Shown: in pieces, positions 1 to 18,674 of the stretch
Position numbering within the stretch: the stretch's first letter is position 1
How the letters are laid out: each line of letters opens with the position of its first letter
Assembly (NCBI GenBank): GCA_965221775.1
Contig: CBDCSU010000006.1
Coordinates: 608,001-672,000, forward strand
Reading direction: 5' to 3'
Source: Candidatus Latescibacterota bacterium
GTDB taxonomy: Bacteria; Latescibacterota; UBA2968; UBA8231
Length of the DNA: 64,000 nucleotides
Program-made: the position numbers and the translations under genes
Notes under the pieces: model-generated
Told to the model about the DNA's origin: nothing
Databases searched by the model: none
What the model saw: the letters and a program-made list of their open reading frames with translations, nothing else

Positions 1-138
1 CGTGTGCAGGATGAGGTCGGGCGCCTCGGACTCGGCCACCTCCAGCAGCCCCCGGAGCGCCTCCAGGTGATCCGGCGTGCGGTCGTGCCGGCCGAGCTTC
101 GCCCCCAGGTGCCAGTCGGAGGTATGGAGCAGCTTCAC
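1..138 (-). CDS. sbcD: SbcD/Mre11-family nuclease, N-terminus only (runs off window edge)
   Basis: Manual translation from GTG at 138 gives MKLLHTSDWHLGAKLGRHDRT..., the metallophosphoesterase motif I. The start overlaps the herA stop (GTGA). Confidence 0.85.
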   Translation of the reverse strand, partial: MKLLHTSDWHLGAKLGRHDRTPDHLEALRGLLEVAESEAPDLILHT

Positions 139-1958
139 AGGTCCCGTTCCGGACCTGCCAGGGCGTCCAGGTTGTTGCGGATTCCTTCGGTCTGCTGCCG
201 GTCCGCGGCCTCGTCCGCCGCCGCCTCGTCGGGATTGGTGGCGAAGGGCGGGAAGGGGAAGCGGATGGGAATGGGCTCGGGCACGATCGGCTGGGAGGCG
301 ACCATGGTGCCCGGCATGAAGCGGGTGGCGCGCTCGCGCAGGGCCGGGGTGAGGAAGCGGTAGGTCTCCGACTCGCTGGCATCCAGCCGTCCCGCCACCT
401 TCAGCGACGCGTTGCGCGGCAGCGGCTGGGCCACGGCGGAAGCCGCCTGCTGGGCGCCGATGAGCAGCACCCCGAGGGATCGGCCGCGTTCGGCGATGTC
501 CACCAGCAGGTCCCTGAGCGGCGAGAACCCCTGGGCCGGCGCGTACTTGTTCAGCTCGTCGAGCACGACGAAGCGCAAGGGCAGGCGGCCGCTCCCCTGC
601 TTGTCGCGCCAGATGCGGTCGAGGAGAGCGCCCACGACGAAGCGCTGGGCGTCGTCGTGGAGGCGCGAGATGTCCACCACGTGGAGGCGGGCGTTCTCCA
701 GGGACAGCGGCTCCAGGCCGCAGCCGACGAGGGGTCCGAGGTGGCGGCGCAGGCGCAGCAGCCGGCGCAGGAAGGCCTGCCGGGTACCGCTCTGGGTGCG
801 CCCGAACCAGGCGTCGACCGAGGCCTCGTCCTCCTCGGCGGCGGCCTGGTCCAGCAGGTCGATCAGGTCGCCGAACTGGCGGATCACGTCTCCGTCGCCG
901 GCGGTCGCCTCCTCCGGCTCGCGCTCCGCCAGGCGGTCGGGGTTGTAGCTGGTGTCGGCGGGAATCCTATGGGCGATCACCACCGCGCCCGTGGAATCGC
1001 CCGCCAGTCGGCGCAGCCGGCGCAGGAGCTGGATGCGCACCTGCTGCTCCACGAAGCCGACCTGCGTCGCCCGCTCGTCTTCCGAGGTGAAGCAGAACTG
1101 GAGCAGCTGATCGCGGATGAACCGCTCCGGCGTCCAGCCGTAGGCCTCCACGTCGCCGGTGGCGCGGGAGTGCACCTCCGGCGTGAGATGGTCGCCCCTG
1201 GCGGTCCCCCGCGGCGCGTAGAGCCGCACCGAGCGGAAGGGTCCGGGGTCGGCCACGCCCAGCGCCTGCCACGATTCGTGCTGATCCGGCCTGCCGGCGA
1301 ACTCGCTGTTGGCGCGGTCCAGGTGGAGCAGGTCCTCGCCCTTGGTGTTGAAGACCAGGGCCCGCACCCCGTCCCGTTCGGCGCGGCCCCCGAGCAGTTC
1401 CATGCCCCCATCCGTTTCCAGCAGTTGGTAGAGGAGGAACAGGGCGTAGGAGGTCTTGGTGGCCACCCCCGAGATTCCCGAGATCGAGACGTGGCCGCCG
1501 GAACGCCCGTCCACGAAGCGCATGTCGGCGTACACGGGGGAGCCGCCCATGTCCAGCCCCAGGGGCAGCTTGCCGCGGGTCATCTCGTCCTCGAAGAGGG
1601 CGAAGACCCGGTGCTCGCCGGTGGCGGGGGTCACCACCGCCCCGGCGTGGGGCGCCAGGAACAGCTCCGGCCGCACGCGCAGGACGCGCACCTGGGCGCG
1701 GCGGACCAGCTCGGCCGGCAGGGTCCGGTCGATGACGCGGCCCGTGTCGGAGGGCAGGTCCGCCCCCTCGAAGCGGGAGAGCAGCTCGGTGACGATGCCG
1801 TAGTGGATCACCTCTCGACCGTCGGGGAGCGCCGTGGTCACGGTGATCAGCTCGTCGAGCTGGATCACCACCTCCTCGTCCAGCACCACGTGAAAGGTCC
1901 GGGAGTCGCTGTCCACCGATCCATCGACCAGCCCGATGCGCGCCGGTCCGCCGCTCAT
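135..1958 (-). CDS. herA: HerA/FtsK-like ATPase
   Basis: N-terminal HAS-barrel-like region, variant Walker A (ISGISGVATKTS), Walker B (FVVLDELNKY), GAQQ motif. ATG at 1958 overlaps the upstream stop. Confidence 0.85.
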   Translation of the reverse strand: MSGGPARIGLVDGSVDSDSRTFHVVLDEEVVIQLDELITVTTALPDGREVIHYGIVTELLSRFEGADLPSDTGRVIDRTLPAELVRRAQVRVLRVRPELFLAPHAGAVVTPATGEHRVFALFEDEMTRGKLPLGLDMGGSPVYADMRFVDGRSGGHVSISGISGVATKTSYALFLLYQLLETDGGMELLGGRAERDGVRALVFNTKGEDLLHLDRANSEFAGRPDQHESWQALGVADPGPFRSVRLYAPRGTARGDHLTPEVHSRATGDVEAYGWTPERFIRDQLLQFCFTSEDERATQVGFVEQQVRIQLLRRLRRLAGDSTGAVVIAHRIPADTSYNPDRLAEREPEEATAGDGDVIRQFGDLIDLLDQAAAEEDEASVDAWFGRTQSGTRQAFLRRLLRLRRHLGPLVGCGLEPLSLENARLHVVDISRLHDDAQRFVVGALLDRIWRDKQGSGRLPLRFVVLDELNKYAPAQGFSPLRDLLVDIAERGRSLGVLLIGAQQAASAVAQPLPRNASLKVAGRLDASESETYRFLTPALRERATRFMPGTMVASQPIVPEPIPIRFPFPPFATNPDEAAADEAADRQQTEGIRNNLDALAGPERDL

Positions 1959-2938
1959 GCCGCGCTCCCCGGGGTCGAGGCCGAACGGTTGAGCTGCAGG
2001 ACCGCGGCCCTCACCGCGCGCAGGGCCAGGCGCGGGTCCCCCTGCAGGTGATGGAGATGGCGCTCCAGGCCGGCCACCGGGGTCATGTTCACCGGGGCGC
2101 GCACGTCGCGGTGCGGGGCGGATGCGAAGGCCGGCAGCCAGCTCGCCGCGGCCTCGGCGGTCTCCACGGCCAACCCCAGGCCGACGCCGGCGGGCACCTC
2201 GAGCCTGACGATCCCGGCCCACGGACCCGCCCACGGCGATGGCCGGCCGACCCGCAGATAGCAGCCGTAGAGGTCCTCCCCCATGGCGAACAGGCCGGAG
2301 CGCTCGCCGGAGGAGAGGCTCGGCACCTCGTTCCAAGCCTCGGGGGCCAGCATCGGCCGGTGATGGGTCTTGACGTAGCCGATGACCGGCAGGGTGCGGG
2401 TGCGGCGGATGTTGTGCAGGGGCCCGTCGATCACGGTGAGCCACCCCGTCTCCGAGAGCCCCTCGGCGATGTCGGCCTCGGTATCGCGCATCCTTCGTCT
2501 CAGGCGGTCGCGGGCGGCTTCCAGCTCGGTGCCGGTGATCGAGTCCGCCTCCCAGGACCATCCCCCGGCCTGCGGCGGGAGCTCGACGCGCTCGCCCGCG
2601 GTGAAGATCGCGGCCCTCCCCACGGTGATCTGGTCGAAGTGCAGGGGCTGCTGTCCATCGACCCGCACCGCACCCGCTCCCCAGCTTCCCGCCAGTCCGG
2701 CTACCGTCCCCTGCCCGCCGGTGAGGGTGAGGCCCGCCTCGACGCGCATCGTGCCGTCGACGAAGGCCAGCCTCCGGGGACGCTGCGCGGCTGCGGGCGA
2801 ATGGACGCGGAAGGCCCCGTCATCCTCGACCAGCTCGCAGGTTAGCGCCTCGGGGGCATCGGCGGGGACCTGGAAGCCGGCGCCGAAACCGGCCTCGAAA
2901 GGTTCCACGCCGATGGTGGTGCGGACCGGCTCCCTCAC
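1955..2938 (-). CDS. nurA: NurA-like nuclease
   Basis: FVDG, IDGPL, GYVKTH and RAPVN..P...LE motifs. Translationally coupled to herA. Confidence 0.75.
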   Translation of the reverse strand: MREPVRTTIGVEPFEAGFGAGFQVPADAPEALTCELVEDDGAFRVHSPAAAQRPRRLAFVDGTMRVEAGLTLTGGQGTVAGLAGSWGAGAVRVDGQQPLHFDQITVGRAAIFTAGERVELPPQAGGWSWEADSITGTELEAARDRLRRRMRDTEADIAEGLSETGWLTVIDGPLHNIRRTRTLPVIGYVKTHHRPMLAPEAWNEVPSLSSGERSGLFAMGEDLYGCYLRVGRPSPWAGPWAGIVRLEVPAGVGLGLAVETAEAAASWLPAFASAPHRDVRAPVNMTPVAGLERHLHHLQGDPRLALRAVRAAVLQLNRSASTPGSAA

Positions 2939-4104
2939 GCCGCCGTCTGGAACGGCTGCCAGTCCTCTCCCGCCGCCGCCGCCTGGCGCTCCAGCTCGCT
3001 GCGCCAGCCGACGACCTCGCCGGACTTGATGCGCTTGATGTCGTAGCCGGCGTAGCGGTCCTCCAGGGTGTCGCCCAGCCTCTGGGTCTCGGCCCAGCGG
3101 TCCCAGGCGGTCTTCATCCACTCGTGGGGCAGGGCCTCGCGCACGGCGGGGTCGAGCTGCCAGGCGCTGCGGGCGTCGGCCACGGTCGGCTCGCCGGTGG
3201 GGGGGCCGCCCCACTTCGTCCAGCCGATGGAGAGGGTGTTGCGCTCGCGGTCGGGGACGCAGTGGCCGGTGTGGATGGTGGCGCCGTTGCGGATCAGGGC
3301 CTCGCCGGCCTTGAGGCGGATGGCGGTCTGCCCCGGCAGGGGGTCCTCGCCGTTCCAGCTGGGGGTGTGGGGGACCCCCTTCTCCTTCATCGCCTTGGGC
3401 AGCAGCACGTCGTGCTCCAGGGGGGTGCGCCAGCGGTCGTGGGATCCCGGGATCAGCTCGTGGCACTCGTCGTCGGTCAGGGCCAGGAACATGCTCACCC
3501 CGCTGCGCTCGGTGATCGACTTGGCGTTGCTCTCCTGGATCTCCTTCCAGCGCCTGCGCTCCACCTCCTCGGAATACGCCTCGGGGCCCTCCGGCTCCTC
3601 GCCGCCCTGGGCGCGGTAGGGCTTGCCGGTGCCCCACCAGGTCGTGTCCCGGTGCCAGCCGAGCTTGTTCTCGCGCTTGCGGGGGTTGCACCACAGCAGC
3701 AGGCCGCCGAGGACCAGGTCCTCGCGCTGCAGCCCGCCGCACCAGGACTCGATGAAGGCCAGGAAGTCGTCGGAGCCGTGGAAGGCGGCGAAGTCCGGCT
3801 CCCCGAAGGCGGGGTGGACGAGGCCGCGGATCGCCCACGGCTCGTCCTCGGCGGCGCGGTGCACGTAGCCCCGGGAGCAGTCGATGCGGTCGTAGCCGTT
3901 CTCCGGGGCGCAGGCCTGGGTGATCCGGCGTCCGGCCTCGCGCAGGACGGGGATCCACGGGTTGTCGACGAAGTCGGTAATGATCACGAAGCCGTGCTCC
4001 CGGAGGTGCTCCAGCCGCTCCGGCGTGCCGCCCGGGGCGGCGAGCTCGGGCTTGGAGTCGGCGAAGGCGGGGGCGCGGTAGGTGGATGGCGAGTCGGCGG
4101 TCAT
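2935..4104 (-). CDS. Phytanoyl-CoA dioxygenase (PhyH) family protein
   Basis: HGFVII, WHRD (HxD), IPGSH and distal His (TIHTG). Confidence 0.8.
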   Translation of the reverse strand: MTADSPSTYRAPAFADSKPELAAPGGTPERLEHLREHGFVIITDFVDNPWIPVLREAGRRITQACAPENGYDRIDCSRGYVHRAAEDEPWAIRGLVHPAFGEPDFAAFHGSDDFLAFIESWCGGLQREDLVLGGLLLWCNPRKRENKLGWHRDTTWWGTGKPYRAQGGEEPEGPEAYSEEVERRRWKEIQESNAKSITERSGVSMFLALTDDECHELIPGSHDRWRTPLEHDVLLPKAMKEKGVPHTPSWNGEDPLPGQTAIRLKAGEALIRNGATIHTGHCVPDRERNTLSIGWTKWGGPPTGEPTVADARSAWQLDPAVREALPHEWMKTAWDRWAETQRLGDTLEDRYAGYDIKRIKSGEVVGWRSELERQAAAAGEDWQPFQTAA

Positions 4105-4234
4105 TTGCTTCCCTTTCCCCGAGAAGATGGGCGCTGCGTCGAACCGGCGTCGAAGGTATACGGCTGATGGTACCGAATCCACCGGAAGGCAGGCTCCGGC
4201 CAGTGTCGGCCGGCGCCTGGATGGGAAGAGTGTC

Positions 4235-4681
4235 TCACATATCGGCACGTAGGGGAAGCAGGATCTCATTCTCGATCCGAACCTCCAGAGCGCGCACGAC
4301 CTGGCATAGTCGCTGGTAGCTGGCGGAGGCGTAGCGTTCCGCCTCATACCGTTGGATCTGCTGCTCCTTGAGTTCCAGGCGTTGGGCAAGCGCCCGCTGG
4401 CTCAGTCCTGCCGCAATCCTGGCCTTGATCAGGCCGTCCGCAAGCTCTTCGAAGGAGGCTACCGAAATGACCGACATGTGGGCCGACTTGAGTTGCTCGT
4501 ACTCATCGAGCTCTTTCCGCAGGTCCGCCAGTTGGCTCTCCATGGCCTCCCGCTCGGCCTGCAGCAGCCTCGCGTGCACATCGTTACGTTCGTCCGCCAT
4601 GGCGTCGAACTCTTCGATCGCACGGGCAAAGCCGAGCGCCTTCTTTCGCGTGATCCGGTACTGTCTCTCGTTGGTGATCAT
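4235..4681 (-). CDS. XRE-family HTH protein (antitoxin-like)
   Basis: MITNERQY N-terminus plus C-terminal HTH (ARIAAGLSQRALAQRL..QQIQRYE). Confidence 0.8.
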   Translation of the reverse strand: MITNERQYRITRKKALGFARAIEEFDAMADERNDVHARLLQAEREAMESQLADLRKELDEYEQLKSAHMSVISVASFEELADGLIKARIAAGLSQRALAQRLELKEQQIQRYEAERYASASYQRLCQVVRALEVRIENEILLPLRADM

Positions 4682-4700
4682 GGCACGCTCCCCAAATCGA

Positions 4701-4859
4701 TCAGCCGGCCGCTGCCACGTTGCGGCACGCAGCTAGCAAACCTTCCATCAGTCGCGCTCCGTGGCAGTTGCCGGCGAAGCGACCGGCGACATCGTGCCAT
4801 CCGGCAACGTGGACGCCTGGCAGGAGGTAGCCAGTCTCGGGGTCAGGCTCAAGCATCAT
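4701..4859 (-). pseudogene. Truncated DUF6932-like (nucleotidyltransferase-type toxin) N-terminal fragment
   Basis: GYLLPGVH..W..RF..N..GARLMEGL stops after ~52 aa, before any catalytic region. Lies upstream of the HTH gene. Confidence 0.5.
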
Positions 4860-4887
4860 GAACACAACATTATCATTGTGTTGATCG

Positions 4888-5266
4888 GTGCCAACCCCCC
4901 AAAGCGGCCGCGCCCTCGTCCTGAGCCACCTTCCGTACCGCGTCATCGGCCTGGAGGTGAGCACCGGGCGGCCGGCGGGCACCGCCTGGCGCCCCGGCGA
5001 GAGCGTGGAGGTTTCCTCGCCGTGGTCATCTCCGAGGCGATCCTCAGCCCGGCCGGCGAAGCACGTGATCCGCGTCGACGTGACCGATCCCGCCGGGGAG
5101 GAGGCCGGCGCCCACGGCGGGAAACTTCGACGCCCCCGGGGGCGACCTGGAGTTGCGCCTGCCCCTGGCCCTCAACGCGCCGGAGGGTGCCTGGACCCTG
5201 CGGGTGCGGGACGTGGGCTCGGGCGTGACCGCCGTCCGGCGTTTCGAGGTTGTGCCGGCGGAGTAG
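4888..5266 (+). pseudogene. Frameshifted C-terminal remnant of a large protein (Ig-like beta-sandwich end)
   Basis: Pieces in different frames: RALVLSHLPYRV..., KHVIRVDVTDPAG..., LPLALNAPEGAWTLRVRDVGSG...VVPAE*. Confidence 0.4.
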
Positions 5267-5641
5267 ACTGCGCCATCCACGGAGGATGCGATGGATCCCG
5301 AGAAGCGTCCGCTGGGACGCGTACCGGAAGAGGAGCCCCTCACCAGATCCTCGCCGGGCAATCTGGAACCCGGTCTCCACCAGGCCTGAACCCCCGAGGA
5401 CCGACTCCCCGTGCGGTGAGTGGGGCTCGCCGGTACTCGCGGTCTTCTGACCCTGGTGGCCTCCGGTATCGAGCTTCGGGGCGGAGTGAGCGGCATCCAG
5501 AGGAACCACGGCGCCAGACTCTACGCACCCTCTCCCTTGCGGTACTACGTGAGCCACCGTATACTCCTGTGTGTTTCAGTTGTACATATCCCTACCGCGT
5601 GCTACTGCCGGCCCTGGTGACCGATGCGAGAGGTGAAATTG

Positions 5642-6067
5642 ATGGCGGACGAGCAGCAGGACGACCTCAAGGAGGAAGCGAGCCTGTCGTTTCGGGCGAA
5701 CGCTGCGGATCTAGCCTCAATGCTGGCCATCGGTGAGCACATCACCGATTTGACGCGGAACATCGACCCCGATTGCTCCGTGACAGGCACGACCTCTCGC
5801 GCCGGGATCATCAGGTACGCCATCCGACAGGTTGGTCATCTGGTTCAGACACCGGCCGGACGGCGTGTGTTAACCTACGCCGGGCGCAAGGAGCTTCGGA
5901 TGTATCGCCGCGCACAGAGCGCCTTCGCCGGCTCGTGGCATTGGGTTGAGACCTGCTCTGGGTGGCCTAGGACGAACTTCCTTGAGCAACTTGAGCGGCC
6001 CCCGGGGGAAGCTCTTTGCCCTACGTGCAGACAACTAGAAGCGAACGAAACAGAGAACCTAGGTTAG
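5642..6067 (+). CDS. Hypothetical: ribbon-helix-helix-like N-terminus plus small Cys/His metal-binding domain
   Basis: GAGGTG RBS; LSFR...SRAGIIRYAIR; WHW..TCSGWP...LCPTC. Confidence 0.5.
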   Translation: MADEQQDDLKEEASLSFRANAADLASMLAIGEHITDLTRNIDPDCSVTGTTSRAGIIRYAIRQVGHLVQTPAGRRVLTYAGRKELRMYRRAQSAFAGSWHWVETCSGWPRTNFLEQLERPPGEALCPTCRQLEANETENLG

Positions 6068-6087
6068 ACAACGAGGAGGAGTGCACC

Positions 6088-6381
6088 ATGGCCCTAGAAC
6101 CTGGAAACGCCGATGGACCCATCGGACCGACGGGGATCGTCAAGGAGCTAACCATTTACATCAATGCCCGGTCGGTGCTCTGGGACAAGCCGACCATTAG
6201 CTTTACGCAAGTGGTCGAGCAGTGGAACCAGCTCGATCCGGAACGATACGTAATCGGTGATCTGCCTGGCATCAACTGGACGGCGATGGACGGAACAAAG
6301 GGTATTTTCTATCCGTCGGATGAACCAATGGCCGTCGTTGATGAACTAGCGTTCAAGATCGACGACTCGTATCTCGCATAG
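6088..6381 (+). CDS. Ubiquitin-like (multi-ubiquitin family beta-grasp) protein
   Basis: Strong RBS GAGGAGGAG. LTIYINAR...ISFTQVV...G.F......V.D.L.FKI pattern of Multi_ubiq domains. Immediately upstream of the ThiF gene. Confidence 0.65.
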   Translation: MALEPGNADGPIGPTGIVKELTIYINARSVLWDKPTISFTQVVEQWNQLDPERYVIGDLPGINWTAMDGTKGIFYPSDEPMAVVDELAFKIDDSYLA

Positions 6382-6390
6382 GGGAAGCGT

Positions 6391-7527
6391 GTGTCTGAGC
6401 ATGAATCACTGGCTCGCCGCGAAGCGGAGCGACGGGGGTGGATAATTGAACGCCGAGACCTAGAAATAGGTGCAGTAGGGGTACCCTGTTTTGTCACACC
6501 CAATACGGCAGGCAGGTGTCACATCTGGGTAGGCATCGGCCCAAACTCAGACGAGCTCACAGCAAACCACGACTGGCAGCAAAATGCTCCGCACACGGCC
6601 GATGTGCGAGGCTTATCACATGGTCGATTGTACGACCGCTCCGGCAACGAGTTGACAAACGGCGTGATTGGGCGAGCTCAAACCAGCCTTGTTCTTTCGA
6701 TCAAGCTTAAAGGCCGTGAGTATGAGGACGCTTGGGAAGCCCTGAACAACTATGTCAAGCAGATCTACGCCCTGTTCCTCGGCCGATCCGCATCGAGAGA
6801 AGAAGCAGCTCCTCGCCCCTATGCGTTCGATGTGCTCGGTGACCAACTGCCAGAAGCGGTGGATTGGAGGGGTCTAGTAGCACAAGAGGGCGTGACGATT
6901 GTCGGACTCGGTGGCGTCGGCGCATGGATAGCAGACCTTGTTCTCAAGGCCGATCCTCGAGAAGTTCACGGCTGGGACTACGACTGCATCGAACCCAAGA
7001 ACATACTACGCATGCCCGGTGGACTTGATCCGAGCGCCTGGATTGGGAGACCCAAGGCCGACTGGTTCCAGGAGACCTACTCCCTCATCCACACAAATGT
7101 ACATGGCCACAATGTAAAGGTGCTCCCTGGAAACGTGCAGGAGGTCATTGCAGGAACCACTTTCGCCTTCGTAGCCGTGGACGACGCTCACGACCGGATG
7201 ATGGTGTGTGACGCGCTGGCCAGCGCTGGAGTCCCCTTCGTGGTGGTAGGACTTTCACCCGTACGCAAGGACAAGCGAGTCAGAGTTTCCATGCGGACGG
7301 TAACAGCCCATGTCGGCACGTCCTCTTGGAGGAATGCTATCCCTCAGGTTGGCCAAGCAGGACAGGACGACTACGGAAGTCTTGACTTGCCCGACGTCTA
7401 CGCAATGGCTGCGGGCTGGGCAATTCAGTCCTGGCGCAAGATGCGCGGCCAATTCTGGCAGGAGCAAAGGGAGGAATGCCTCGACTATAGTGCTAGTGAC
7501 CAGTCTCTCATAGTGAGAGGGGTCTAA
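6391..7527 (+). CDS. ThiF/E1-like adenylyltransferase with N-terminal DUF6791-like (E2-like) domain
   Basis: IVGLGGVGAW Rossmann motif, DYDCIEPKNILR, FVAVD. N-terminal ~140 aa includes VPCFVT and Y...WE.LNNYV. Confidence 0.8.
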   Translation: MSEHESLARREAERRGWIIERRDLEIGAVGVPCFVTPNTAGRCHIWVGIGPNSDELTANHDWQQNAPHTADVRGLSHGRLYDRSGNELTNGVIGRAQTSLVLSIKLKGREYEDAWEALNNYVKQIYALFLGRSASREEAAPRPYAFDVLGDQLPEAVDWRGLVAQEGVTIVGLGGVGAWIADLVLKADPREVHGWDYDCIEPKNILRMPGGLDPSAWIGRPKADWFQETYSLIHTNVHGHNVKVLPGNVQEVIAGTTFAFVAVDDAHDRMMVCDALASAGVPFVVVGLSPVRKDKRVRVSMRTVTAHVGTSSWRNAIPQVGQAGQDDYGSLDLPDVYAMAAGWAIQSWRKMRGQFWQEQREECLDYSASDQSLIVRGV

Positions 7528-7528
7528 G

Positions 7529-7924
7529 ATGCACTTCTGGAAGTGGATGAAGCGGGGGACACGAAATACCCAACCCCACCATGCTGTGAGGAACCGAGAG
7601 TCAATGGTATTGAAGCCAATGTTTGTTGAGACAATCCCGCACCTACCCGAAATGGAGAGAGGTACACTCTACGTCAGCATGCGCTTCGCTACCCTCTCCC
7701 ATCTGTGTCCCTGCGGGTGTGGTCGTTTGGTCGACGTGACGCTGAACCCTGAGACCCGTAGTTTGATCTACGATGGTGAGTATCTAACTCTAAGACCTTC
7801 GATCGGGGTCAAGTTCCCATGCAGAAGCCACTACTCGATCATTCGGAATGCGATCATGTGGCACCCGCGGATCTCCAAGTGCGAGAGCAGGTGGTACGAC
7901 CGCTTTAGGAAGAGATGGGCCTAA
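7529..7924 (+). CDS. DUF6527 family putative metal-binding protein
   Basis: FVETIP..E.GTLYVS...HLCPCGCG...TLRPSIG..FPCRSHY. Start may be at the later MVLKP. Confidence 0.8.
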   Translation: MHFWKWMKRGTRNTQPHHAVRNRESMVLKPMFVETIPHLPEMERGTLYVSMRFATLSHLCPCGCGRLVDVTLNPETRSLIYDGEYLTLRPSIGVKFPCRSHYSIIRNAIMWHPRISKCESRWYDRFRKRWA

Positions 7925-8044
7925 GGACAATAGACCATCTAACTCTCCCCTTGGCATGTAGCGACCTCTTGCCGTCTGCGACTCTTTGGAGGCTACATGA
8001 ACACATTGGGGGCAGATGCCCTCCAGAAAGGACGAGAAACCAAC

Positions 8045-8545
8045 GTGCCATATCGAAATAAGACGTTCGTATCGTTTGACGGGGACACAGACATTCACTA
8101 CTACCGGTTAATGCAGGCGTGGAAGCAAAGCGACGGCATGGACTTCAACTTCTACGACGCCCATGATCTGAACACCGCACGGGACTCGAGCCGAGAGGAG
8201 TCGATCAAGGCGCAGCTAGCGGCTCGAATGCGTGCGACCAAGATCTTTGTGCTCTTGATCGGAGAGCATACCCGGTATCTTAGGAAGTTCGTGCGTTGGG
8301 AAATCGAACAGGCGCTCAGGCGGGAACTACCGATCATTGCGGTCAACCTCAATGGAAGGCGTCACCTCGACGATGCCAGGTGCCCTCCCCTACTTCGAGA
8401 AGAACTCGCCATTCATGTCAGCTTTAACGCATCCATCATTCAGCGTGCGATGGATGCGTGGCCTTCTTTCCACAGCGGCAAGCTTGGCAAGGAGTCTGGT
8501 CCGCACTACTACCAGGATTCTGTCTACCAGGAATTGGGCCTGTGA
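8045..8545 (+). CDS. thsB: Thoeris ThsB-like TIR domain protein
   Basis: YRNKTFVSFDGD.D, FYDAHDL, VLLIG..T, FVRWEIE (catalytic Glu), PIIAVN. Confidence 0.8.
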   Translation: MPYRNKTFVSFDGDTDIHYYRLMQAWKQSDGMDFNFYDAHDLNTARDSSREESIKAQLAARMRATKIFVLLIGEHTRYLRKFVRWEIEQALRRELPIIAVNLNGRRHLDDARCPPLLREELAIHVSFNASIIQRAMDAWPSFHSGKLGKESGPHYYQDSVYQELGL

Positions 8546-9480
8546 CCCTTAGTCGCCTTCGATTCCAGGCCATGGCATGGATCAAGGAGGTGGCGTCAAC
8601 AAGAGCTCTCTCTATCATGTTTGGCGTGGCCGGCGCATACTTCCTGCTTTACAAGATGGCCGCGTTGTTCTTGGAGGACACGCCGATTCACCAGCTCCTG
8701 AGACAGCTTTGGTGGCTTGGTTTTCTTGTTGGTGGCACTTACGCCCTGTGGGTTTGCAGGCCACGAACCTCGATAACCCACAGGCTCTCGGGACGGGACG
8801 TGACGCTCGAGATTGCTGTGGGTGATGTTCTGTCCTTCACTGGCGACCTTGTGATAGGCAGCAATACGACATTCGACACGAAGGTATCGAAAAGGCTCAT
8901 TTCCAAGGAGAGTGTGCAAGGCCAATTCCTGGCGCGGTACTACGGAAGCGACAGTGACACGCTCGACGGGGAGCTTCGTGACCAACTGGATGATCTCTCA
9001 GCGGAAGTACTTGCCGGAGACCGTGTCGGCAAGAGCGCGAGGTACGAGTTGGGGACGGTTGTCCAAGTTCATCCTGATCGCCGGCATCCAAACCGCCGAG
9101 CCTACCTTCTAGCGATCGCGGATATCAATGAGGGAGGGGTGGCGCGCGGTGACTTTGAAGGGCTAAAGCGAGCGCTCGCTGCGCTGTGGGTGTACGTAGG
9201 TGCTCGCGGTGCAATTTCACCTTTGGTTGCGCCGGTCCTGGGTACTGGTTTCTCGAGGCTGTCAGAAAAGAGAGAGGAAGTCGTTCGTGAGATGTTTCGG
9301 TCGTTCGTGGCTGCCTGCTCCGATGGCGTGTTCACGCCGCGATTCACGGTCGTGCTCGGTTGGCAGGACGTTGTTGAACACAACATATCGATAGAAGAGC
9401 TTGGGCTGTTTGTTAGGCATCTCTGCCTCTACGCCGAACATTCGAGGGCTGACGTAGATCCAATTGGGGCTCCGGTATAG
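8542..9480 (+). CDS. thsA: Thoeris type II ThsA-like effector: 2 TM helices plus macro domain (DUF6430-like)
   Basis: Two N-terminal hydrophobic helices; VGDV, GSNTTFDT, SVQGQF, PVLGTGFSR macro motifs. GTGA overlap with the TIR gene. Confidence 0.75.
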   Translation: MTLSRLRFQAMAWIKEVASTRALSIMFGVAGAYFLLYKMAALFLEDTPIHQLLRQLWWLGFLVGGTYALWVCRPRTSITHRLSGRDVTLEIAVGDVLSFTGDLVIGSNTTFDTKVSKRLISKESVQGQFLARYYGSDSDTLDGELRDQLDDLSAEVLAGDRVGKSARYELGTVVQVHPDRRHPNRRAYLLAIADINEGGVARGDFEGLKRALAALWVYVGARGAISPLVAPVLGTGFSRLSEKREEVVREMFRSFVAACSDGVFTPRFTVVLGWQDVVEHNISIEELGLFVRHLCLYAEHSRADVDPIGAPV

Positions 9481-9514
9481 ATCTGAGAAGATGCCGGGTG
9501 TAGATTGGTCCCGG

Positions 9515-10081
9515 TCAGGATCGATCAAGAAGCTCTCTATGCTTATCGCGGAGGGCAGACAGCAGCTCCTCTTGGAACTCCTTCGACAAGCGTGATGACT
9601 CCGACCGGAATATGCGGACGCCCGTCTCAATCACCCAATTCAGGGGGATTTTCGGATTGTTGAGATGCCCCCGTCCTTCACGCAGCCTCTCTTCCCACAG
9701 CTGGAAGTAGGTTTCGAGATCCGCTGCGGTGAGGTGATAGATGTGCTGAAGTTCGATGCCCTCGTAGACTCCGAATATCCAGTCGACCGAACGATAGTGA
9801 TCGATTATCGCCTGATTCATGTGATGGTGTGTGGTGAAACTCCGTGCACTCGTCGCCAGGTTTACTGACTTGATCTCATACTCCTTACCATCGTCATCTT
9901 CGGCATCAGAACCTTCCCGACCTGGAGTGTTTTTTAGCCCGGTAGTCATCAGCAACTGCAGCAACTTGCCGCCATTGTCTTGAAATATGTCGTTGATTCC
10001 GTGAACGGAAGCCAATGCTTGGTAAACCCGTATGTACGGCAATAGCACATCCAGGATTGCCTTGTCCGGGTGAGGATTCAC
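9515..10081 (-). CDS. Type II restriction endonuclease, PvuII family
   Basis: Close match to R.PvuII as recalled: HGINDIFQDNGGKLLQ, PGREG.DA, EYEIKS, FTTHHHMN, NNPKIP. Confidence 0.92.
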   Translation of the reverse strand: MNPHPDKAILDVLLPYIRVYQALASVHGINDIFQDNGGKLLQLLMTTGLKNTPGREGSDAEDDDGKEYEIKSVNLATSARSFTTHHHMNQAIIDHYRSVDWIFGVYEGIELQHIYHLTAADLETYFQLWEERLREGRGHLNNPKIPLNWVIETGVRIFRSESSRLSKEFQEELLSALRDKHRELLDRS

Positions 10082-10308
10082 TTCTTCTTGCCAGACAGAA
10101 GGTCAGCGATACTGGCCCCGACCGCGGCTGCAATCCGCTCCATGTTGTCGATGGAGACATTACGCTCCCCACGCTCGACCGCGCCGATATAGGTGCGATG
10201 GATGCCCGCCATCTGTGCGAGACCCTCCTGAGATAATCCTTTGGCCTGACGGAGTCTCCGCAAATTCGCGCCGAATCTCTGTCGGGCACTTGACTGAGTT
10301 GCACCCAT
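10078..10308 (-). CDS. R-M controller (C) protein, XRE HTH
   Basis: LRQAKGLSQEGLA...IHRTYIGAVERGERNVSIDN, coupled to the R gene. Alternative start at 10329. Confidence 0.88.
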   Translation of the reverse strand: MGATQSSARQRFGANLRRLRQAKGLSQEGLAQMAGIHRTYIGAVERGERNVSIDNMERIAAAVGASIADLLSGKKK

Positions 10309-10334
10309 ATTCTTTAATGTACTACTCATGTGAT

Positions 10335-10360
10335 GACCATAAGTCTACAGCCTATGAGTA
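10335..10360 (-). promoter_or_regulatory. C-box operator pair (PvuII type)
   Basis: Minus strand reads TACT-cat-AGGC-TGTA-GACT-tat-GGTC, matching GACT-N3-AGTC-TGTA-GACT-N3-AGTC. TACATT lies 7 nt before the ATG at 10308, suggesting a leaderless C mRNA. Confidence 0.8.
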
Positions 10361-10385
10361 GCATTCCCACCCGGAGAAGAGGTCA

Positions 10386-11471
10386 ATGGCTGGAAGAGAG
10401 GTGCTCCTGCCTGAGAAGCCCGCGTATCACACAAATCTTGGCGCCGCGTACTGTGGCGATTCACTGGAGTTGCTATCGGAGTTGCCTGATGGCGCAGTCG
10501 ATCTCGTGATCACCAGTCCACCCTTCGCTCTTCAAAGGCAAAAGGAGTATGGGAACAAGGACCAAGCTGAGTATATCGACTGGTTGACGGAATTCGCTAG
10601 ACTAGTCCATCAGAAGTTGAACGACCATGGCAGCTTTGTGTTGGATCTCGGTGGTGCATATCGAAGGGGTGTCCCTGCCCGGAGTCTATACAATTTCCGG
10701 GTCGCAATAAGGTTTTGTGACGAGGTAGGGTTCTTTCTTGCGGAGGACTTCTACTGGTTCAATCCGTCCAAGCTCCCCAGTCCCATTGAGTGGGTCAACA
10801 AACGCAAAATGCGGGCAAAGGACTCGGTCAACACGGTGTGGTGGTTTAGCAAGACGGAGTGGCCGAAGGCGGACGTAACGAAAGTCCTCACCGAATACAG
10901 TGATCGAATGAAGAGGCTCTTGGAGGCTCCGGATAGCTTCTACTCACCGGCCGAGAGACCTTCGGGGCACGATATAGGGAGAGGATTCGGCAAACGTAAC
11001 CAAGGCGCAATACCAAGCAACTTGCTCAAGTTGCCGCTGGTGGACGAGGACGCTCTTTCTGCGCTATTGGAGGAGTTTGATTTGCCGCCCAATTTGCTCG
11101 AGATACCCAACTCTGAGTCCAACAGTCAGTACCTGAGGGGTTGCAAGAGCGCAGGGGTGAAAGCACATCCAGCTCGGTTCCCCCCGAGATTGCCTGAGTT
11201 CTTCGTCCGGTTTCTTACCGATCCATTCGATCTCGTAGTCGACATTTTCGCAGGCTCTAATACGACGGGAATGGTCGCCGAGAGGGAAGGTCGGCAGTGG
11301 TTAGCTTTTGATGAGAGGGTTGACTACTTGGCAGCGTCCGCTTTCCGGTTCTTCGGAGTTGAAGCTACGGCAGAAGAAGCGAAGTCGGTGTATCAACGCA
11401 TCAAGAGCGGCGAGTCCGTGAATATGGAGCAATTTGCGGGGCAACGGGACATCTTGGGACAGCACAACTGA
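10386..11471 (+). CDS. N4-cytosine DNA methyltransferase (beta class), M.PvuII-like
   Basis: TSPPF, HPARFP, DIFAGSNTT. Divergent from the C-R genes as in PvuII. Confidence 0.92.
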   Translation: MAGREVLLPEKPAYHTNLGAAYCGDSLELLSELPDGAVDLVITSPPFALQRQKEYGNKDQAEYIDWLTEFARLVHQKLNDHGSFVLDLGGAYRRGVPARSLYNFRVAIRFCDEVGFFLAEDFYWFNPSKLPSPIEWVNKRKMRAKDSVNTVWWFSKTEWPKADVTKVLTEYSDRMKRLLEAPDSFYSPAERPSGHDIGRGFGKRNQGAIPSNLLKLPLVDEDALSALLEEFDLPPNLLEIPNSESNSQYLRGCKSAGVKAHPARFPPRLPEFFVRFLTDPFDLVVDIFAGSNTTGMVAEREGRQWLAFDERVDYLAASAFRFFGVEATAEEAKSVYQRIKSGESVNMEQFAGQRDILGQHN

Positions 11472-11843
11472 TTGGCGCAAGTGGAGACCCCTATGGCTGG
11501 TCCATCGAGCTGCTTTGCGGGTGGTGGTTCTACCATGCACCTCGATTCGAGCAGCCGGCGGTTCTTCGAACGCAGCCTGCTCGACGACACCGTCGCCGGT
11601 CCACCCGCCGACGAGGAGCCTGTGCCGCGGCTCTCACCGCGGCTTCGGTGCGAGGGATCATCGCCACCGGGGCACGCGCCGGCCAGCGCCCGCTCCGTGG
11701 TGGGCTTCACCGAGGGGGCCCAGAGGAGGACCTGCCTCGCCGAGAGCGACGACGGCATCGACTGGCGGCGGCCCGACGCCACGGAGGGTAGATCCAGGCC
11801 GGCGCCCTGGCCGACCCAGAGCCTTTTGGCCGAACGGAACGAG

Positions 11844-13208
11844 ATGAAACGCGAACACATCTTCTCCCATTACGAACAGGACGCAACCCGGTACTGGAAG
11901 CTGAGAGAAGGCGGCTATGCCACCCCGATGAGTGTGTGTCAGGGAGATGAGGTAACGTTCCACATATCGAATTCCAGATCGTACTACGGTGTATTCGTGT
12001 TCCACGAAGGGGCCGAACGGCGTCTGGTGAAGGAGATAAGCGGCCTGCGCGGCGGGCTTCCCCCGATCCCCGAGTCCGGCTATCGGGACGGATTCGGATG
12101 GCCCGCGACGGTCTCGTTCCGGGTGCCTCGCGACTGGAAGAGCGGCGTTTACATCGCCAGTTTCCCCACCGCACAGGGGATCCGGGAGATCCTGTTCGTC
12201 GTTCGCCCGCGCCTTCCCAGCGCGCCGATTCTCCTGACGATCGAGACCAATACCTATGCCGCCTACAACTGCGTGGGCGGCAAGTGCCTATTCCCCTACC
12301 TGTCCACCGACCGATCTCACAGCAACCTCGTGACCTTCGAGCGACCCTTGCAGCCGGACATCATGGGCGGGTTCCATGCTTGGGATCAGTTCTTCACATC
12401 GTGGCTCGACGCCGAGGGGTACCAGGTAGACTACTGCGTCAACGCCGACCACGACCGGCAGCCGAATCTCCTGGATGACTACCCTGCACATCTCAGGATC
12501 TGTCACGGCGAGTATTCGAGCCGCGAAGAGTGCGAGCAGCTTCAGCGGTTCGTGGCGCGCGGCGGCAACCTGATGGTCTTTGCCGGCAACTCCTTCTCGC
12601 ACCTGGTGGAGACCCGGGCCGGCGGACGCCAGCTCTACTGTGCCAAGAGCCGGTACAAGATGCACCCCCTCGGCACGCCGGAGGACCCCGACACATCCTT
12701 TCTCCGCGCAATCGACAATCTGCGTCAGCGCACGATTGGCGTTTCCTATACGGCCGCCGTCAACGCCAAGAGCAAGACTCCCGGCGAGATCGTGGCCCCC
12801 ACGTCCGGCGAATACGGGTTCTTCCGCGTGACCCGGCCCGACCACTGGGCCTTCGCAGGAACCGGGCTGGGTGAAGGGGACGAGTTCGGCCGGGAAGACT
12901 CGATCGTCGGAGTCGAGTGCGACGGGGGTGACATCGAGTTCAAGGATGGGAAGCCGCGGTTCACGGGCCGTGACGGGATCAGCCCGCACTACCAGATCAT
13001 CGCCATCGGGGACGCGGAGGACCACGGCCTCAACGCGGACCTGGGGGTCCACCAGGACCGGTTCTACGCCACCGTCGCGGTCAACGAGACGGAGTTCAAG
13101 GGGACTGTCTTCACGGCGGCAACCATCGAGTGGGCGCACGGCCTCTACCGGAACGGCGGTCCGGTGGCCCAGATCACGCGCAATGTCCTGGACCGTCTGG
13201 GCCGATAG
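11844..13208 (+). CDS. N,N-dimethylformamidase beta-subunit family protein
   Basis: W...VSFRVP.DWKSGVY, TYAAYN..GGK.L, FERP, HGEY.S, HWAFAGTG, VGVECD. The upstream 11475-11840 stretch looks like a degraded gene. Confidence 0.7.
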   Translation: MKREHIFSHYEQDATRYWKLREGGYATPMSVCQGDEVTFHISNSRSYYGVFVFHEGAERRLVKEISGLRGGLPPIPESGYRDGFGWPATVSFRVPRDWKSGVYIASFPTAQGIREILFVVRPRLPSAPILLTIETNTYAAYNCVGGKCLFPYLSTDRSHSNLVTFERPLQPDIMGGFHAWDQFFTSWLDAEGYQVDYCVNADHDRQPNLLDDYPAHLRICHGEYSSREECEQLQRFVARGGNLMVFAGNSFSHLVETRAGGRQLYCAKSRYKMHPLGTPEDPDTSFLRAIDNLRQRTIGVSYTAAVNAKSKTPGEIVAPTSGEYGFFRVTRPDHWAFAGTGLGEGDEFGREDSIVGVECDGGDIEFKDGKPRFTGRDGISPHYQIIAIGDAEDHGLNADLGVHQDRFYATVAVNETEFKGTVFTAATIEWAHGLYRNGGPVAQITRNVLDRLGR

Positions 13209-13375
13209 TGGATGAGCTCGCTGACGAGGAGCCCGTGCCGGCGGCTCTCACTGCCCTTCGGAGCACGCGCAGGCCAACGCCTGCGCCGGTCACTTGCCGC
13301 CGCAGCGGTGTTTTCGGTAGGTAGAACAGCCCCAGAAGACACCATCCACCCTCCAGAAAGCAGCGAGGTCTGACC

Positions 13376-15007
13376 ATGGGCACCGACTCCTACACAGTGA
13401 ACCACTGGAACGAGGCGACGCACGCGCACGAGCCGTCGATCCTCACCATAGAGCAGAACTTCACCTTCGACGCCCTCGGGTTCCTCGTGCTGCCGCAACT
13501 CCTCGGCCCCGCCGAGCTGTCCGCGTGCCGCGACAGCGGCGGTGGGCTGGGCGATCTGTGCAGCGAGGCCGGCGCCGTCGGACGCTACGTGCGCGAGCTG
13601 TGCGGCGATGGCTTCCGCCAGGACGGCCCTGCGAGGCACGTCCCTGCCGCCGCCGCAGGAGGGTGCGACGAAGCCTCCCTGCCACTGACAGGCGGGGCGC
13701 ACACGCTGGACCGGGCGTACATCAACCTGGCGGGGTGGAATGGCCGCAACGCCGACGGTTCTCCGCTCCCGCGGGCCGGCGGCGCTTGGGAAGAGGTCCG
13801 CATCCGGCAGTGCCAGGGGCTGGTGGTGGCCATCGCCCTCACGGACTCCACGGAAGGCAAGGGCCCGCTGGTGGTCGTGCCCTCCTCGCACAAGAGCGGG
13901 CTGCCGGCCCCACCGCTTCCATCCTCCAGCCACTTCGCCGAGCGCCCGGCGCTGGCGGCGGGCGACGTGCTTCTGTGCGCCGCCAGCACCCTGCACGGGG
14001 TCTGCCCACAGGGTGATGGCGGCGAGCTGCTCGTGGTGGACTTCATCTCGCGCGCGGCTCGGCCACAGGGGCCGCCCGACCCGCAGGACGAGCAGCCCCT
14101 GCCCGAGTGGGCGGAAGAGCTGGGCGAGGCCGAGCAGACCGTGCTTGCAGGCGGAGACTCGCGTCGCCTGCTCCTGTCGGACGGCACGACCACCTGGCTC
14201 ACCTCCGCCGACGATGCCGACGCCGCGCAGAGGGCCTCCTCGGCCCTCGAGTTCGAAGGCCGAGATGATCATGCCGAGCGCTGGGCCTTCGACACCCAGG
14301 GCTTCCTGCTGGTCGAGGGCGTCATGGACGATGATTGGGTCGATGCGGCCTTGGCGGGCATTGACGCCAACCTCGACCGCCTGGTGTACCGGGGCGCAGG
14401 CGACAAGGGCGGGGACGTGACGCTTGCCGACATCCCCGGGGCGCCGACGATCTCGGGCACGGCCCGGCCGGACCTGAAGGGTTTGTTCCAGCTGCCGGCG
14501 CCGCACAATGAGCCTTTCCTCAAGATGCTGGCGCACCCCGCCGTCATCGGGCGCCTGAACTGGATGATCGGACCAGGGTACAAGGTGACTCAGAGCACGG
14601 CCCTGTGCCACGTCAAAGGCTCGAGCGGGCAGATGCTGCACGCGGGGAACGCCAACCCGACCTCCGTCGGCAAGCACTACGAGATGGTGAACGGGCGCGT
14701 GCACACGAGGTCGGGCATCAACGTCGCCTGGCAGCTCGCCGACGTCGGGCCCGACGACGGCGGCTTTGTCGTAGTGCCGGGCAGTCACAAGTCGTGCTAT
14801 CCCCTGCCGCATTCGGTGCGGACCTGCAACGAGCGCGCGCCGATCCGCCACATTCCCATGCGACGCGGGTCTGTTCTCTTCTTTCTGGGAGGGACGGTCT
14901 GTCACGGGGCGTACCGCTGGGAGGCCGAGTCACCGAGGCGGACACCGCTCTTCACGTACGGGCACGACGGCCGACGCCCTTTTGCATGGCCCTCGAGCAG
15001 ACTGTGA
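13376..15007 (+). CDS. Tandem two-domain PhyH-family dioxygenase
   Basis: Two FD..GFL starts, VVPSSHKS/VVPGSHKS, and distal His motifs TLHG/VCHG. Confidence 0.7.
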   Translation: MGTDSYTVNHWNEATHAHEPSILTIEQNFTFDALGFLVLPQLLGPAELSACRDSGGGLGDLCSEAGAVGRYVRELCGDGFRQDGPARHVPAAAAGGCDEASLPLTGGAHTLDRAYINLAGWNGRNADGSPLPRAGGAWEEVRIRQCQGLVVAIALTDSTEGKGPLVVVPSSHKSGLPAPPLPSSSHFAERPALAAGDVLLCAASTLHGVCPQGDGGELLVVDFISRAARPQGPPDPQDEQPLPEWAEELGEAEQTVLAGGDSRRLLLSDGTTTWLTSADDADAAQRASSALEFEGRDDHAERWAFDTQGFLLVEGVMDDDWVDAALAGIDANLDRLVYRGAGDKGGDVTLADIPGAPTISGTARPDLKGLFQLPAPHNEPFLKMLAHPAVIGRLNWMIGPGYKVTQSTALCHVKGSSGQMLHAGNANPTSVGKHYEMVNGRVHTRSGINVAWQLADVGPDDGGFVVVPGSHKSCYPLPHSVRTCNERAPIRHIPMRRGSVLFFLGGTVCHGAYRWEAESPRRTPLFTYGHDGRRPFAWPSSRL

Positions 15008-15032
15008 GCTCCCGGCGCCCAAGGAGGTATCC

Positions 15033-15923
15033 ATGGCCCTGACCCAGGAACAGAAGACCCGCTTCTTCGAGGACGGTTACATCGCCGTCAAAGGGCTTCT
15101 CACCGCGCATGAGCTCGAGACGCTGCACAACCACTACGCCGACCTCGCACTCGGCCGCGTCCCCGGCTTTCCGGAAGGCAACATCTCTCACCACACTCCC
15201 GGAGCCGCTCAAGCGGCCGAGCCGTCCACACCTCACGGGAGTCGGCATGACCGACGCGGCACCCAGGTCTATCCAAGAGGGGAAGTGACCGGCGCCGAAA
15301 GACGCACACCGGTTGAGGACCCGTTGGATACGATACGCCATCTCAACCTGCCTTCGTACCACGATTCGGCTTTTGAAGCGTTTGTCCGAAGTCCAAAGAT
15401 TGTCGACATCATCGAGTCCCTGATGGGGCCCGATATCAAGCTCTACTACGACCAGGTCTTTGCGAAGCCGCCTTACGCGGCAGCGAATCGCTATCATCAG
15501 GATTCCGTTTTCTGGGCATTCTTCGCGAGCAACTTCCAGGTCACATGCCAGATTCTGCTCGACGATGCGACTGCCGAGAACGGTTGTGTGCGGTTCATCC
15601 CGGGCAGCCACAACTTCGGCCTCGTCAACTGGGATCACCTCCCCTACATGCTGACTGAGGATGTGCTCGCGCAGGAGGTCGCTGTTCCACTGAAGGCGGG
15701 AGATGCGACCTTTCACCATAGCCTGGCGCTCCATTGCAGCGGCCCGAATACCACGCCGTACCGGCGGCGAGGCTGGTCGATTCACTACGTCTCCTCGGAC
15801 ACGCGTTACATCGGCACACCCGAAGAGACCGAGCGCCTGCAACAGCGCGGTTGCCTTGTCGGACCGGAGCCTGTCAACGGTTGGCCCCTGATCCGGGGAC
15901 GGGAGTTCCCGGGGTGTGTATAG
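15033..15923 (+). CDS. PhyH-family dioxygenase
   Basis: AAGGAGG RBS; FFEDGY, YHQD, IPGSH, FHHSLALH. Confidence 0.88.
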   Translation: MALTQEQKTRFFEDGYIAVKGLLTAHELETLHNHYADLALGRVPGFPEGNISHHTPGAAQAAEPSTPHGSRHDRRGTQVYPRGEVTGAERRTPVEDPLDTIRHLNLPSYHDSAFEAFVRSPKIVDIIESLMGPDIKLYYDQVFAKPPYAAANRYHQDSVFWAFFASNFQVTCQILLDDATAENGCVRFIPGSHNFGLVNWDHLPYMLTEDVLAQEVAVPLKAGDATFHHSLALHCSGPNTTPYRRRGWSIHYVSSDTRYIGTPEETERLQQRGCLVGPEPVNGWPLIRGREFPGCV

Positions 15924-18670: not shown

Positions 18671-18674
18671 AGGA

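Follow-up and report, generated by a model that had tools for sequence, protein, structure and literature searches.

A probable Type II Bub cassette with a glycine-less ubiquitin-like protein and a conserved companion gene in Candidatus Latescibacterota

Gene content and class of the cassette

The window analyzed here is a stretch of 64,000 nucleotides (nt) from a Candidatus Latescibacterota genome (contig CBDCSU010000006.1, positions 608,001 to 672,000 of the forward strand). Open reading frame (ORF) calling places four tightly packed plus-strand genes at positions 5642-7924 of this window. They encode a companion protein of unassigned family (gene 1), a ubiquitin-like protein (Ubl, named BubA), a ThiF-type activating enzyme (E1) that carries an extra, probably conjugating-enzyme-like (E2-like) N-domain (BubBD), and BubE, a DUF6527 protein. 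The order Ubl, E2-E1 fusion and DUF6527 without a JAB peptidase is the layout of the Type II Bub operons (formerly 6E.2/DUF6527). The cassette is assigned to this class with a probability of about 0.8 and, by homology, would conjugate its Ubl through oxyesters. It is a divergent new member of a class that has already been described. Its novelty is modest and lies in a divergent subclade, ~80% identical across many lineages of metagenome-assembled genomes (MAGs), and in the undescribed upstream gene.

The intergenic gaps within the cassette are 20, 9 and 1 nt in gene order. The G+C (GC) content is 56.9% in the cassette, 55.5% in the segment 5500-11500 and 72.3% in the left flank. Homologs were found for the Ubl (78), the E1 (143) and gene 1 (84), which puts the cassette far beyond chance, and all four proteins are kept at 75-90% identity across many lineages. 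The first-pass annotation of the window had described a tightly spaced Ubl, a ThiF E1 extended by an additional N-domain and a protein with the motif HLCPCGC...CRSH; ORF calling and Pfam confirm this description. Its span from 5642 has the right coordinates, but the first gene inside the span was left undescribed. It had also reported that a JAB peptidase and CxxC motifs in the E1 are lacking. Among the ORFs scanned in 4235-11471, no JAB family match is present (Pfam), in agreement with Type II, and the cysteines of BubBD (residues 33, 43, 199, 273 and 363) form no CxxC.

Bub operons represent a recently described form of Ubl conjugation that runs on tyrosine and serine oxyesters instead of cysteine thioesters. 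The name was given to the 6E/DUF6527 operons by Ye et al. (preprint of 2024, bioRxiv 10.1101/2024.11.21.623953, later cited as Nat Struct Mol Biol 2026). According to the text of this preprint, a Type I operon consists of a Ubl(-E2), the JAB-E1 fusion BubCD and the DUF6527 protein BubE. A Type II operon consists of the Ubl BubA, the E2-E1 fusion BubBD and BubE, usually without a JAB, and 405 such operons are given as IMG ids in Table S1 of the preprint. Conjugation proceeds without catalytic cysteines, from the adenylate to a tyrosine of the crossover loop and on to an E2 serine, both linkages being oxyesters (Ye et al.). In Type II a lysine and a histidine accompany the E2 serine. E. coli BubBD no longer conjugates BubA to BubA once it carries R219A, Y342F or S106A. 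Conjugates are removed by BubE, which has a C4 zinc site, acts as a Ser-His protease and loses all cleavage with S92A or H102A. In the preprint, Ubl conjugation via oxyesters is demonstrated only with the systems of Citrobacter and E. coli. With the Tyr/Ser oxyesters and the BubE protease described there, the view of the first-pass annotation that the DUF6527 type of operon is functionally uncharacterised has been overtaken. Its proposal of a conjugation operon made of Ubl, E1, E2-like domain and DUF6527 protein, on the other hand, is supported by the homology to Type II Bub.

In terms of Pfam families, typical Type II loci contain Multi_ubiq, DUF6791-ThiF and DUF6527, and Type I loci contain Multi_ubiq, Prok-E2_E, Prok-JAB-ThiF and DUF6527. 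DUF6527 is present in 28 of 168 genomes of the window's phylum. Twenty loci (L058-L077) were fetched from this sample; 13 of them are Type II, six are complete Type I operons and one is cut by a contig end. Prok-JAB is present in the Type I loci of this same phylum. A genome of the same class (G037) has five DUF6527 matches, one of them with an internal TGA, which suggests that it carries several Bub operons.

Table 1. Features of the cassette and its surroundings (positions in the window; aa, amino acids).
Feature	Position	Strand	Description	Family or best match
Gene 1	5642..6067	+	141 aa from ATG at 5642; longest ORF begins at 5624	family unassigned
BubA	6088..6381	+	97 aa; GAGGAGGAG 8 nt upstream	Multi_ubiq PF14452
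BubBD	6391..7527	+	378 aa; GTG start	ThiF PF00899
BubBD, probable E2-like N-domain			residues ~1-150; His68, Ser103, Lys105	
BubBD, ThiF adenylation domain			GxGGxG 172-177, Arg207, Asp264, Tyr328	
BubE	7529..7924	+	131 aa	DUF6527 PF20137
ThsB TIR	7997..8545			PADLOC ThsB1 1e-73
ThsA Macro	~8572..9480		ORF from 8458, probable ATG at 8572; hydrophobic N-terminal segments	PADLOC 1.9e-51
PvuII-like restriction endonuclease	9515..10081	-		Pfam 2.5e-53
N4/N6 methyltransferase	10386..11471			PADLOC MTase_II 2e-167
HTH_3/XRE-family ORF	4235-4681	-		Pfam 9e-8
808-aa ORF	135-2561	-	conserved left flank	PADLOC mad8 E=2.8e-15, weakly HerA; no Pfam family

BubA and its C-terminus

BubA matches the Pfam family Multi_ubiq with E=1.6e-4 and 22.2 bits, which is under the cut-off of 24.5; the same family is matched by 16 of 19 aligned members of the BubA family. 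The single sequence has no match in the PDB (phmmer). With the family profile of the Type II Ubls, on the other hand, 9cd2 (E. coli ZDHYS365 multi-ubiquitin domain protein, Ubl3) is reached at E=3.9e-9, and the matched part is the solved β-grasp domain 3. The alignment extends to the C-terminal end of both proteins and places Ser222 of 9cd2 (...VTQTDKS) over Ala97 of the window. BubA from the same E. coli operon as 9cd2 formed conjugates in vitro (Ye et al.).

The chain ends in ...KIDDSYLA with Ala97 as the terminal residue and has its last glycine at residue 72, as the first-pass annotation had read it. The tails of the 78 homologs end in alanine (72) or serine (4), never in glycine, and two are truncated. 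In the window's phylum, the 13 Type II Ubls end in serine (11; ...TD[KQR]S, ...TGQS, ...AHLS) or alanine (2). The Type I Ubls of the phylum contain ...TEG in all six complete loci, either terminal or followed by 1-8 residues. The glycine-less tail had been taken for a local oddity; it is in fact common to 76 of the 78 close homologs, to 13 of 13 Type II Ubls of the phylum and to 9cd2.

Because Ser222 of 9cd2 lies on Ala97, E. coli BubA forms conjugates and the tail counts agree, a small terminus other than glycine is, as judged from these alignments, the general rule for Type II Bub, and it is compatible with activation. The C-terminal alanine, already named by the first-pass annotation as the residue acted on, is very probably the activated residue of BubA, and both adenylation and conjugation are presumed to occur at Ala97. 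Since BubA would be translated with its reactive end already exposed, a Type II system would not need a processing JAB. The main text of the preprint mentions a conserved glycine for Type I only, and the terms "C-terminal serine", "terminal serine" and "S222" were not found in it; the supplement and the journal version were outside this search.

A profile HMMER search of a library of 1.84 billion proteins yielded 20 distant relatives of BubA at E<=1e-3. Their chains end in ...DYLS, ...SHLA, ...SHLS, ...EHIA and once in ...YHNG, and a few are extended. Since this library-wide search gave only 20 proteins, the BubA subfamily is judged to be small, with mainstream Multi_ubiq proteins beyond its sequence reach. 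The N-terminal tail (window 6088-6150) is variable, with Pro/Thr-rich repeat insertions of up to ~27 residues in some homologs (P0065, P0068 and P0072). It is probably a disordered extension that precedes the β-grasp domain.

The E2-E1 fusion BubBD

Residues 167-289 of BubBD match the Pfam family ThiF (E=3.8e-10). The best match in the PDB is Citrobacter BubCD, with E=5e-4 for the single sequence and 3.3e-12 for the profile. The ThiF and MoeB models of NCBIfam stay far below their cut-offs. The E1-E2 models of PADLOC match weakly (best E=3.7e-6) and only over the Rossmann stretch at residues ~163-264.

An alignment of 14 Type II BubBDs, eight of them typical ones from the window's phylum with ~20% identity, has Ser103, Arg207, Asp264, Tyr328 and GxGGxG in every sequence. 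All of these are likewise invariant in the 33 BubBDs of the subclade, and Lys105 is conserved in at least 90%. Arg207 is aligned with the arginine of the N-x-x-R motif of Citrobacter BubCD. No cysteine is invariant across the 14 Type II BubBDs.

When the subclade and typical Type II BubBDs are compared over their full length, hhalign reports 99.9% (361 columns). The alignment of the N-domains pairs His68, Ser103 and Lys105 with His65 (invariant), Ser105 and Lys107 of the typical BubBDs. This agrees with the lysine and histidine that go with the E2 serine in Type II (Ye et al.). The fold of the N-domain is probably E2-like.

A model of two BubBD chains, one BubA and two ATP has an ipSAE interface score of 0.73 (three runs, 0.71-0.75), and the best of three controls scores 0.00. 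Of 157 solved complexes, 116 attain the mark used for this score, as do two of 215 mismatched pairs. The runs have a contact agreement of at least 68% and a predicted local distance difference test score (pLDDT) of at least 75 for the partner. In the modeled interface, residues 58-77 and the tail 90-96 of BubA touch E1 residues 287-289, 300-318 and 363-376. The modeling of Ubl and E1 that had been proposed as a check thus places the BubA tail in the interface with the E1. Complexes of BubCD with BubA have been solved, so the docking result may reflect resemblance to these; it speaks for likeness and not for binding by the window's copy, and it carries no information on the chemistry.

The DUF6527 protein BubE

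BubE matches DUF6527 with E=3.1e-16. Its motif HLCPCGC...PCRSH provides the four cysteines of the putative C4 zinc site (Cys60, Cys62, Cys64 and Cys98) and the putative dyad Ser91/His101. The spacing is the same as in the published Citrobacter protein (C57/C59/C61/C99, S92, H102). The 40 BubE sequences compared were chosen by a regular expression that demands the motif residues, so their invariance at these positions holds by construction. As an independent check, all 20 DUF6527 loci found by Pfam (L058-L077) yielded a motif-bearing ORF. On this basis BubE is predicted to have a C4 zinc site and to act as a Ser-His protease of the DUF6527 family. The first-pass annotation had offered three roles, adaptor, E3-like factor or peptidase, and it is the peptidase that agrees with the Ser-His protease of Ye et al. 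The N-terminal extension of BubE is basic and hydrophobic.

Gene 1

Gene 1 is found upstream of BubA in the cassette loci L001-L009, L011 and L013 at 59-85% identity, and nearly all of its 84 homologs are 70-90% identical. Pfam gave nothing significant for any of the 18 members scanned (E<=10), nor did PADLOC or NCBIfam. The best match of its profile in the PDB (E=0.3) is a short WHW motif shared with Aha1 and is not significant. Scores in the ESM Atlas do not exceed 0.77, with a RHH_1 cluster at 0.75.

Two invariant clusters stand out in the alignment. The N-terminal one reads S-L-S-F-R-A-N...helix...R-Y-A-x-R-Q, and the C-terminal one, in a part rich in Trp, Cys and His, reads W-H-W-x-E-x-C...C-x-x-C (W99, H100, W101, C105 ... 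C126, C129). The N-terminus may be ribbon-helix-helix-like; this reading of the sequence pattern, together with the Atlas score of 0.75, is only a lead. Gene 1 has lost its C-terminal half to an in-frame deletion in L012 (4228-4671), L076 and L077, and it is truncated in L010 and L015. The other three genes are intact in all five loci. Scans for promoters, terminators and inverted repeats upstream of gene 1 revealed nothing above shuffled expectation.

Known controllers of Bub operons are CapW and CapH+CapP, as given in the preprint text (Ye et al.), and CapK+CapS, as given in the text of a later report (EMBO J 2026, PMC13373217). Gene 1 resembles none of these but occupies their position in the operon. 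A regulatory role is proposed with low confidence. Tentatively, gene 1 could be an undescribed regulator or sensor dedicated to Bub, or else an adaptor or a conjugation target that belongs to the cassette itself. The cassette would then form a self-contained unit in which the role and the trigger of Bub could be found.

Distribution and genomic setting

In BLASTN comparisons, similarity to 14 other loci covers only ~5640-7920 of the window, and the flanks are unrelated. The identity of these loci is 74-84%, with 65% for L013. By title, the MAGs with these loci belong to Pseudomonadales, Arenicellales, Rhodothermales, Vicinamibacterales, Gemmatimonadetes, Acidobacteria, Latescibacterota and other groups. 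Across the loci the GC content of the cassette is 44-57%, and that of the host flanks is 41-71%. Within the window's genus, the cassette occurs in G000 only; the genome G160 has other DUF6527 matches elsewhere. A recent transfer between phyla was considered and rejected. Since the nucleotide identity (~80-83%) is no higher than the protein identity, the spread of the cassette is not very recent. One locus is decayed (L014, 2987-4268): BubBD is in pieces, one of which is fused in frame to BubE, and an ORF for BubA was not found.

A Thoeris pair (ThsB and ThsA) lies directly downstream of the cassette, yet it was not co-transferred with it, because the similarity to other loci stops at ~7920. 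A PvuII-like restriction-modification (R-M) pair completes the low-GC island. The defence-island setting described by the first-pass annotation is therefore borne out by the genes that adjoin the cassette. Between the conserved flanks of the island, which in the window reach up to 4176 and resume at 11841, the distance is ~0.4 kb in G166, 4.6 kb in G167 and ~19-21 kb in G160 and G165. Because this spacing differs among the four genomes, the island is located in a variable hotspot. No tRNA genes were found within window positions 1-20000. The HTH_3/XRE-family ORF belongs to the variable part, ~960 nt upstream of the cassette, and is not found in the near-empty site of G166.

Three cassette loci (L010, L012 and L015, at ~6630-8880) echo the R-M neighbor of the window, with a Type II R-M pair that begins ~100 nt after BubE. 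Its genes match the PADLOC models MTase_II (~1e-114 to 1e-126) and REase_II (~1e-133 to 1e-143).

Proposed mechanism, biological role and alternatives

From homology with the Bub systems published for E. coli and Citrobacter, the following sequence of events is proposed. In a homodimer of BubBD, the ThiF domain would bind BubA, and the carboxylate of Ala97 would be adenylated at the expense of ATP with the participation of Arg207 and Asp264. BubA would then be transferred to Tyr328 of the crossover loop as an oxyester. A second oxyester would form on Ser103 of the E2-like N-domain with the help of Lys105 and His68, and BubA would finally be attached to a lysine, either in a target protein or in a second BubA. 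BubE would cleave the conjugates by means of Ser91/His101 and its Cys4-Zn site and thus restrain the pathway. Gene 1, which has the place of CapW, CapH+CapP or CapK+CapS in other Bub operons, might act as a regulator specific to the cassette. The biological output is the least certain step and most likely is phage defence or a stress response.

Several points weigh against this assignment. If hhalign is restricted to the N-domain, the match to typical Type II BubBDs is moderate (63.9%, E=6.6e-5, 105 columns). DUF6791, which finds the N-domains of typical Type II BubBDs at 5e-60 and 6e-36, is not detected by Pfam on the N-domain of the window at E<=0.1. For this reason the E2-like fold is rated as probable and not as confirmed. 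The location of Tyr328 on the crossover loop is inferred by alignment. The AlphaFold2 prediction of BubA alone, based on an alignment of 32 close homologs, has a pLDDT of 51.6 and does not resolve the β-grasp. The corresponding prediction for gene 1 (18 sequences, pLDDT 52.7) is too poor for its fold to be assessed. Furthermore, Cys33, Cys273 and Cys363 are invariant in 33 of 33 BubBDs of the subclade.

Concerning the role, phage defence is put at slightly better than even odds, and a broader stress or other role is a possible but rather doubtful output. The adjacency of Thoeris and R-M genes is circumstantial evidence for an immune role, and the first-pass annotation had implied an antiphage function. 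Such a function is demonstrated for no Bub operon in the two publications cited here. The Discussion of the preprint states that no Bub operon was found to protect E. coli from phage (Ye et al.), and the Discussion of the EMBO J article repeats this (EMBO J 2026, PMC13373217).

The enrichment of homologs in defence islands, anticipated by the first-pass annotation, was found only in weak form. PADLOC matches (E<=1e-10, ~4 kb on each side) occur in the flanks of 6 of 12 cassette loci and in 11 of 61 ORFs, mostly as R-M genes. The control consisted of 12 loci drawn pseudo-randomly from the window's genome; three of these loci and 3 of 53 ORFs have such matches. The sample is small, the control comes from a single genome and three of the six positive loci share the same R-M neighbor, which makes the test weak. 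The association of the cassette loci with defence genes is suggestive only.

The same machinery could therefore serve a general stress response or a housekeeping modification instead of antiphage defence, and its adjacency to Thoeris and R-M genes could be mere co-residence in a hotspot. This explanation is tentative. It agrees with the published absence of phage protection, with the weak enrichment and with the 6 of 12 cassette loci that have no PADLOC neighbor at all. It also agrees with the inserts of the same hotspot in two relatives (G167, 4.6 kb, and G165, ~20 kb; L082 and L083), where the PADLOC matches among the 32 ORFs scanned are RmrA/CapP-like (ImmA/IrrE-type) only. On the other hand, the other occupants of the 6-kb low-GC island are a Thoeris and an R-M system, and the Type II R-M pair recurs directly after BubE in three loci. 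Moreover, the Bub operons described in the two publications are often under the control of the damage-sensing CapW, CapH+CapP or CapK+CapS.

The three invariant cysteines raise a different question, namely whether the subclade has kept or regained thioester chemistry via Cys33 in the E2-like domain or via Cys273 or Cys363 in the E1, in place of the Ser/Tyr relay. Cys33 replaces the tyrosine of an IPY motif that is conserved in typical Type II BubBDs. However, Ser103, Lys105, His68 and Tyr328 are all kept, invariant or nearly so, and conservation of the three cysteines does not extend to Type II BubBDs as a whole. The location of Cys363 in the predicted surface for BubA binding suggests that this residue has a structural function. 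Thioester chemistry is thus very unlikely, and the oxyester relay is retained as the preferred mechanism.

Still less probable is an adenylation-only system acting on the C-terminal alanine (a ThiS/MoaD-like sulfur carrier or a MccB/PaaA-like peptide modification) or a decaying remnant: the E1 profile also matches MccB, PaaA, ThiF and MoeB (E 1e-7 to 2e-5), and MccB adenylates a C-terminus other than glycine, but the best matches are BubCD and a Bub Ubl, the E2 Ser/Lys/His, the crossover tyrosine and the dedicated protease are all conserved, genes for rhodanese, sulfurtransferase or peptide maturation were not found in the island (Pfam scan), the four genes are held at high protein identity in many lineages, and the truly decayed copy in L014 looks different.

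Comparison with known systems

A sulfur carrier of the ThiS/MoaD type was rejected, as the tail ...SYLA is not Gly-Gly and as the extra N-domain and BubE are present. Bil operons (BilABCD) resemble the cassette in that Ubl, E1 and E2 are encoded together and conjugate the Ubl to proteins, as is inferred for the window; Bil Ubls end in glycine. Unlike the window, Bil has a separate cysteine E2, the JAB peptidase BilC, an E1 with a mobile Cys domain and, according to the preprint text, a proven antiphage role (Ye et al.). Membership in Bil was rejected because a JAB, a gene for a separate E2, a Cys domain and CxxC motifs are all lacking here.

In Type II cyclic-oligonucleotide-based antiphage signaling systems (CBASS), an E2-E1 fusion adenylates a partner protein at its C-terminus; the cassette has a probable fusion of this kind, for which the same reaction is predicted. 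In contrast to the window, Cap2 works through catalytic cysteines and thioesters, acts on a CD-NTase and is accompanied by the JAB peptidase Cap3 (Ye et al., preprint text). This class was likewise rejected, as neither a CD-NTase nor a JAB was found in the island (Pfam, PADLOC) and the E1-E2 models are weak.

Type I Bub, represented by Citrobacter BubAB/BubCD/BubE (PDB entries 9ea4, 9ea5 and 9ea8), is closer. It shares with the window a ThiF-type E1 without a catalytic cysteine, a DUF6527 protease, a Multiubiquitin Ubl and an oxyester chemistry that is predicted for the window. Type I (6E.1) differs by its JAB-E1 fusion and by a Prok-E2_E that is separate or fused to the Ubl. Its Ubl has a conserved glycine exposed by JAB cleavage (...TEG plus 0-8 residues, 6/6 in the phylum). 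The counts thus back a contrast between Type II Ubls, which end in serine or alanine, and Type I Ubls with their glycine, and this contrast fits the absence of a processing JAB in Type II.

The closest characterized relative is the Type II operon of E. coli ZDHYS365 (BubA/BubBD/BubE; 10.1101/2024.11.21.623953). Both have the same gene order, no JAB, an E2 serine with lysine and histidine, an adenylation arginine and a crossover tyrosine. They also share the Cys4 site and the Ser-His dyad of BubE and a Ubl that ends in a small non-glycine residue right after the last β-strand. The Ubl of the window has one β-grasp domain, whereas the E. coli protein has three, and the tails read ...SYLA and ...TDKS, respectively. 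Compared to typical Type II proteins, BubBD of the window is only ~20-24% identical, and its N-domain escapes the DUF6791 model.

The locus adds no new chemistry. It adds a divergent subclade, strongly conserved and transferred widely, whose minimal single-domain Ubl and compact BubBD may be easier to work with. Where other Bub operons have CapW, CapH+CapP or CapK+CapS, the window has gene 1, a conserved companion that may control the system.

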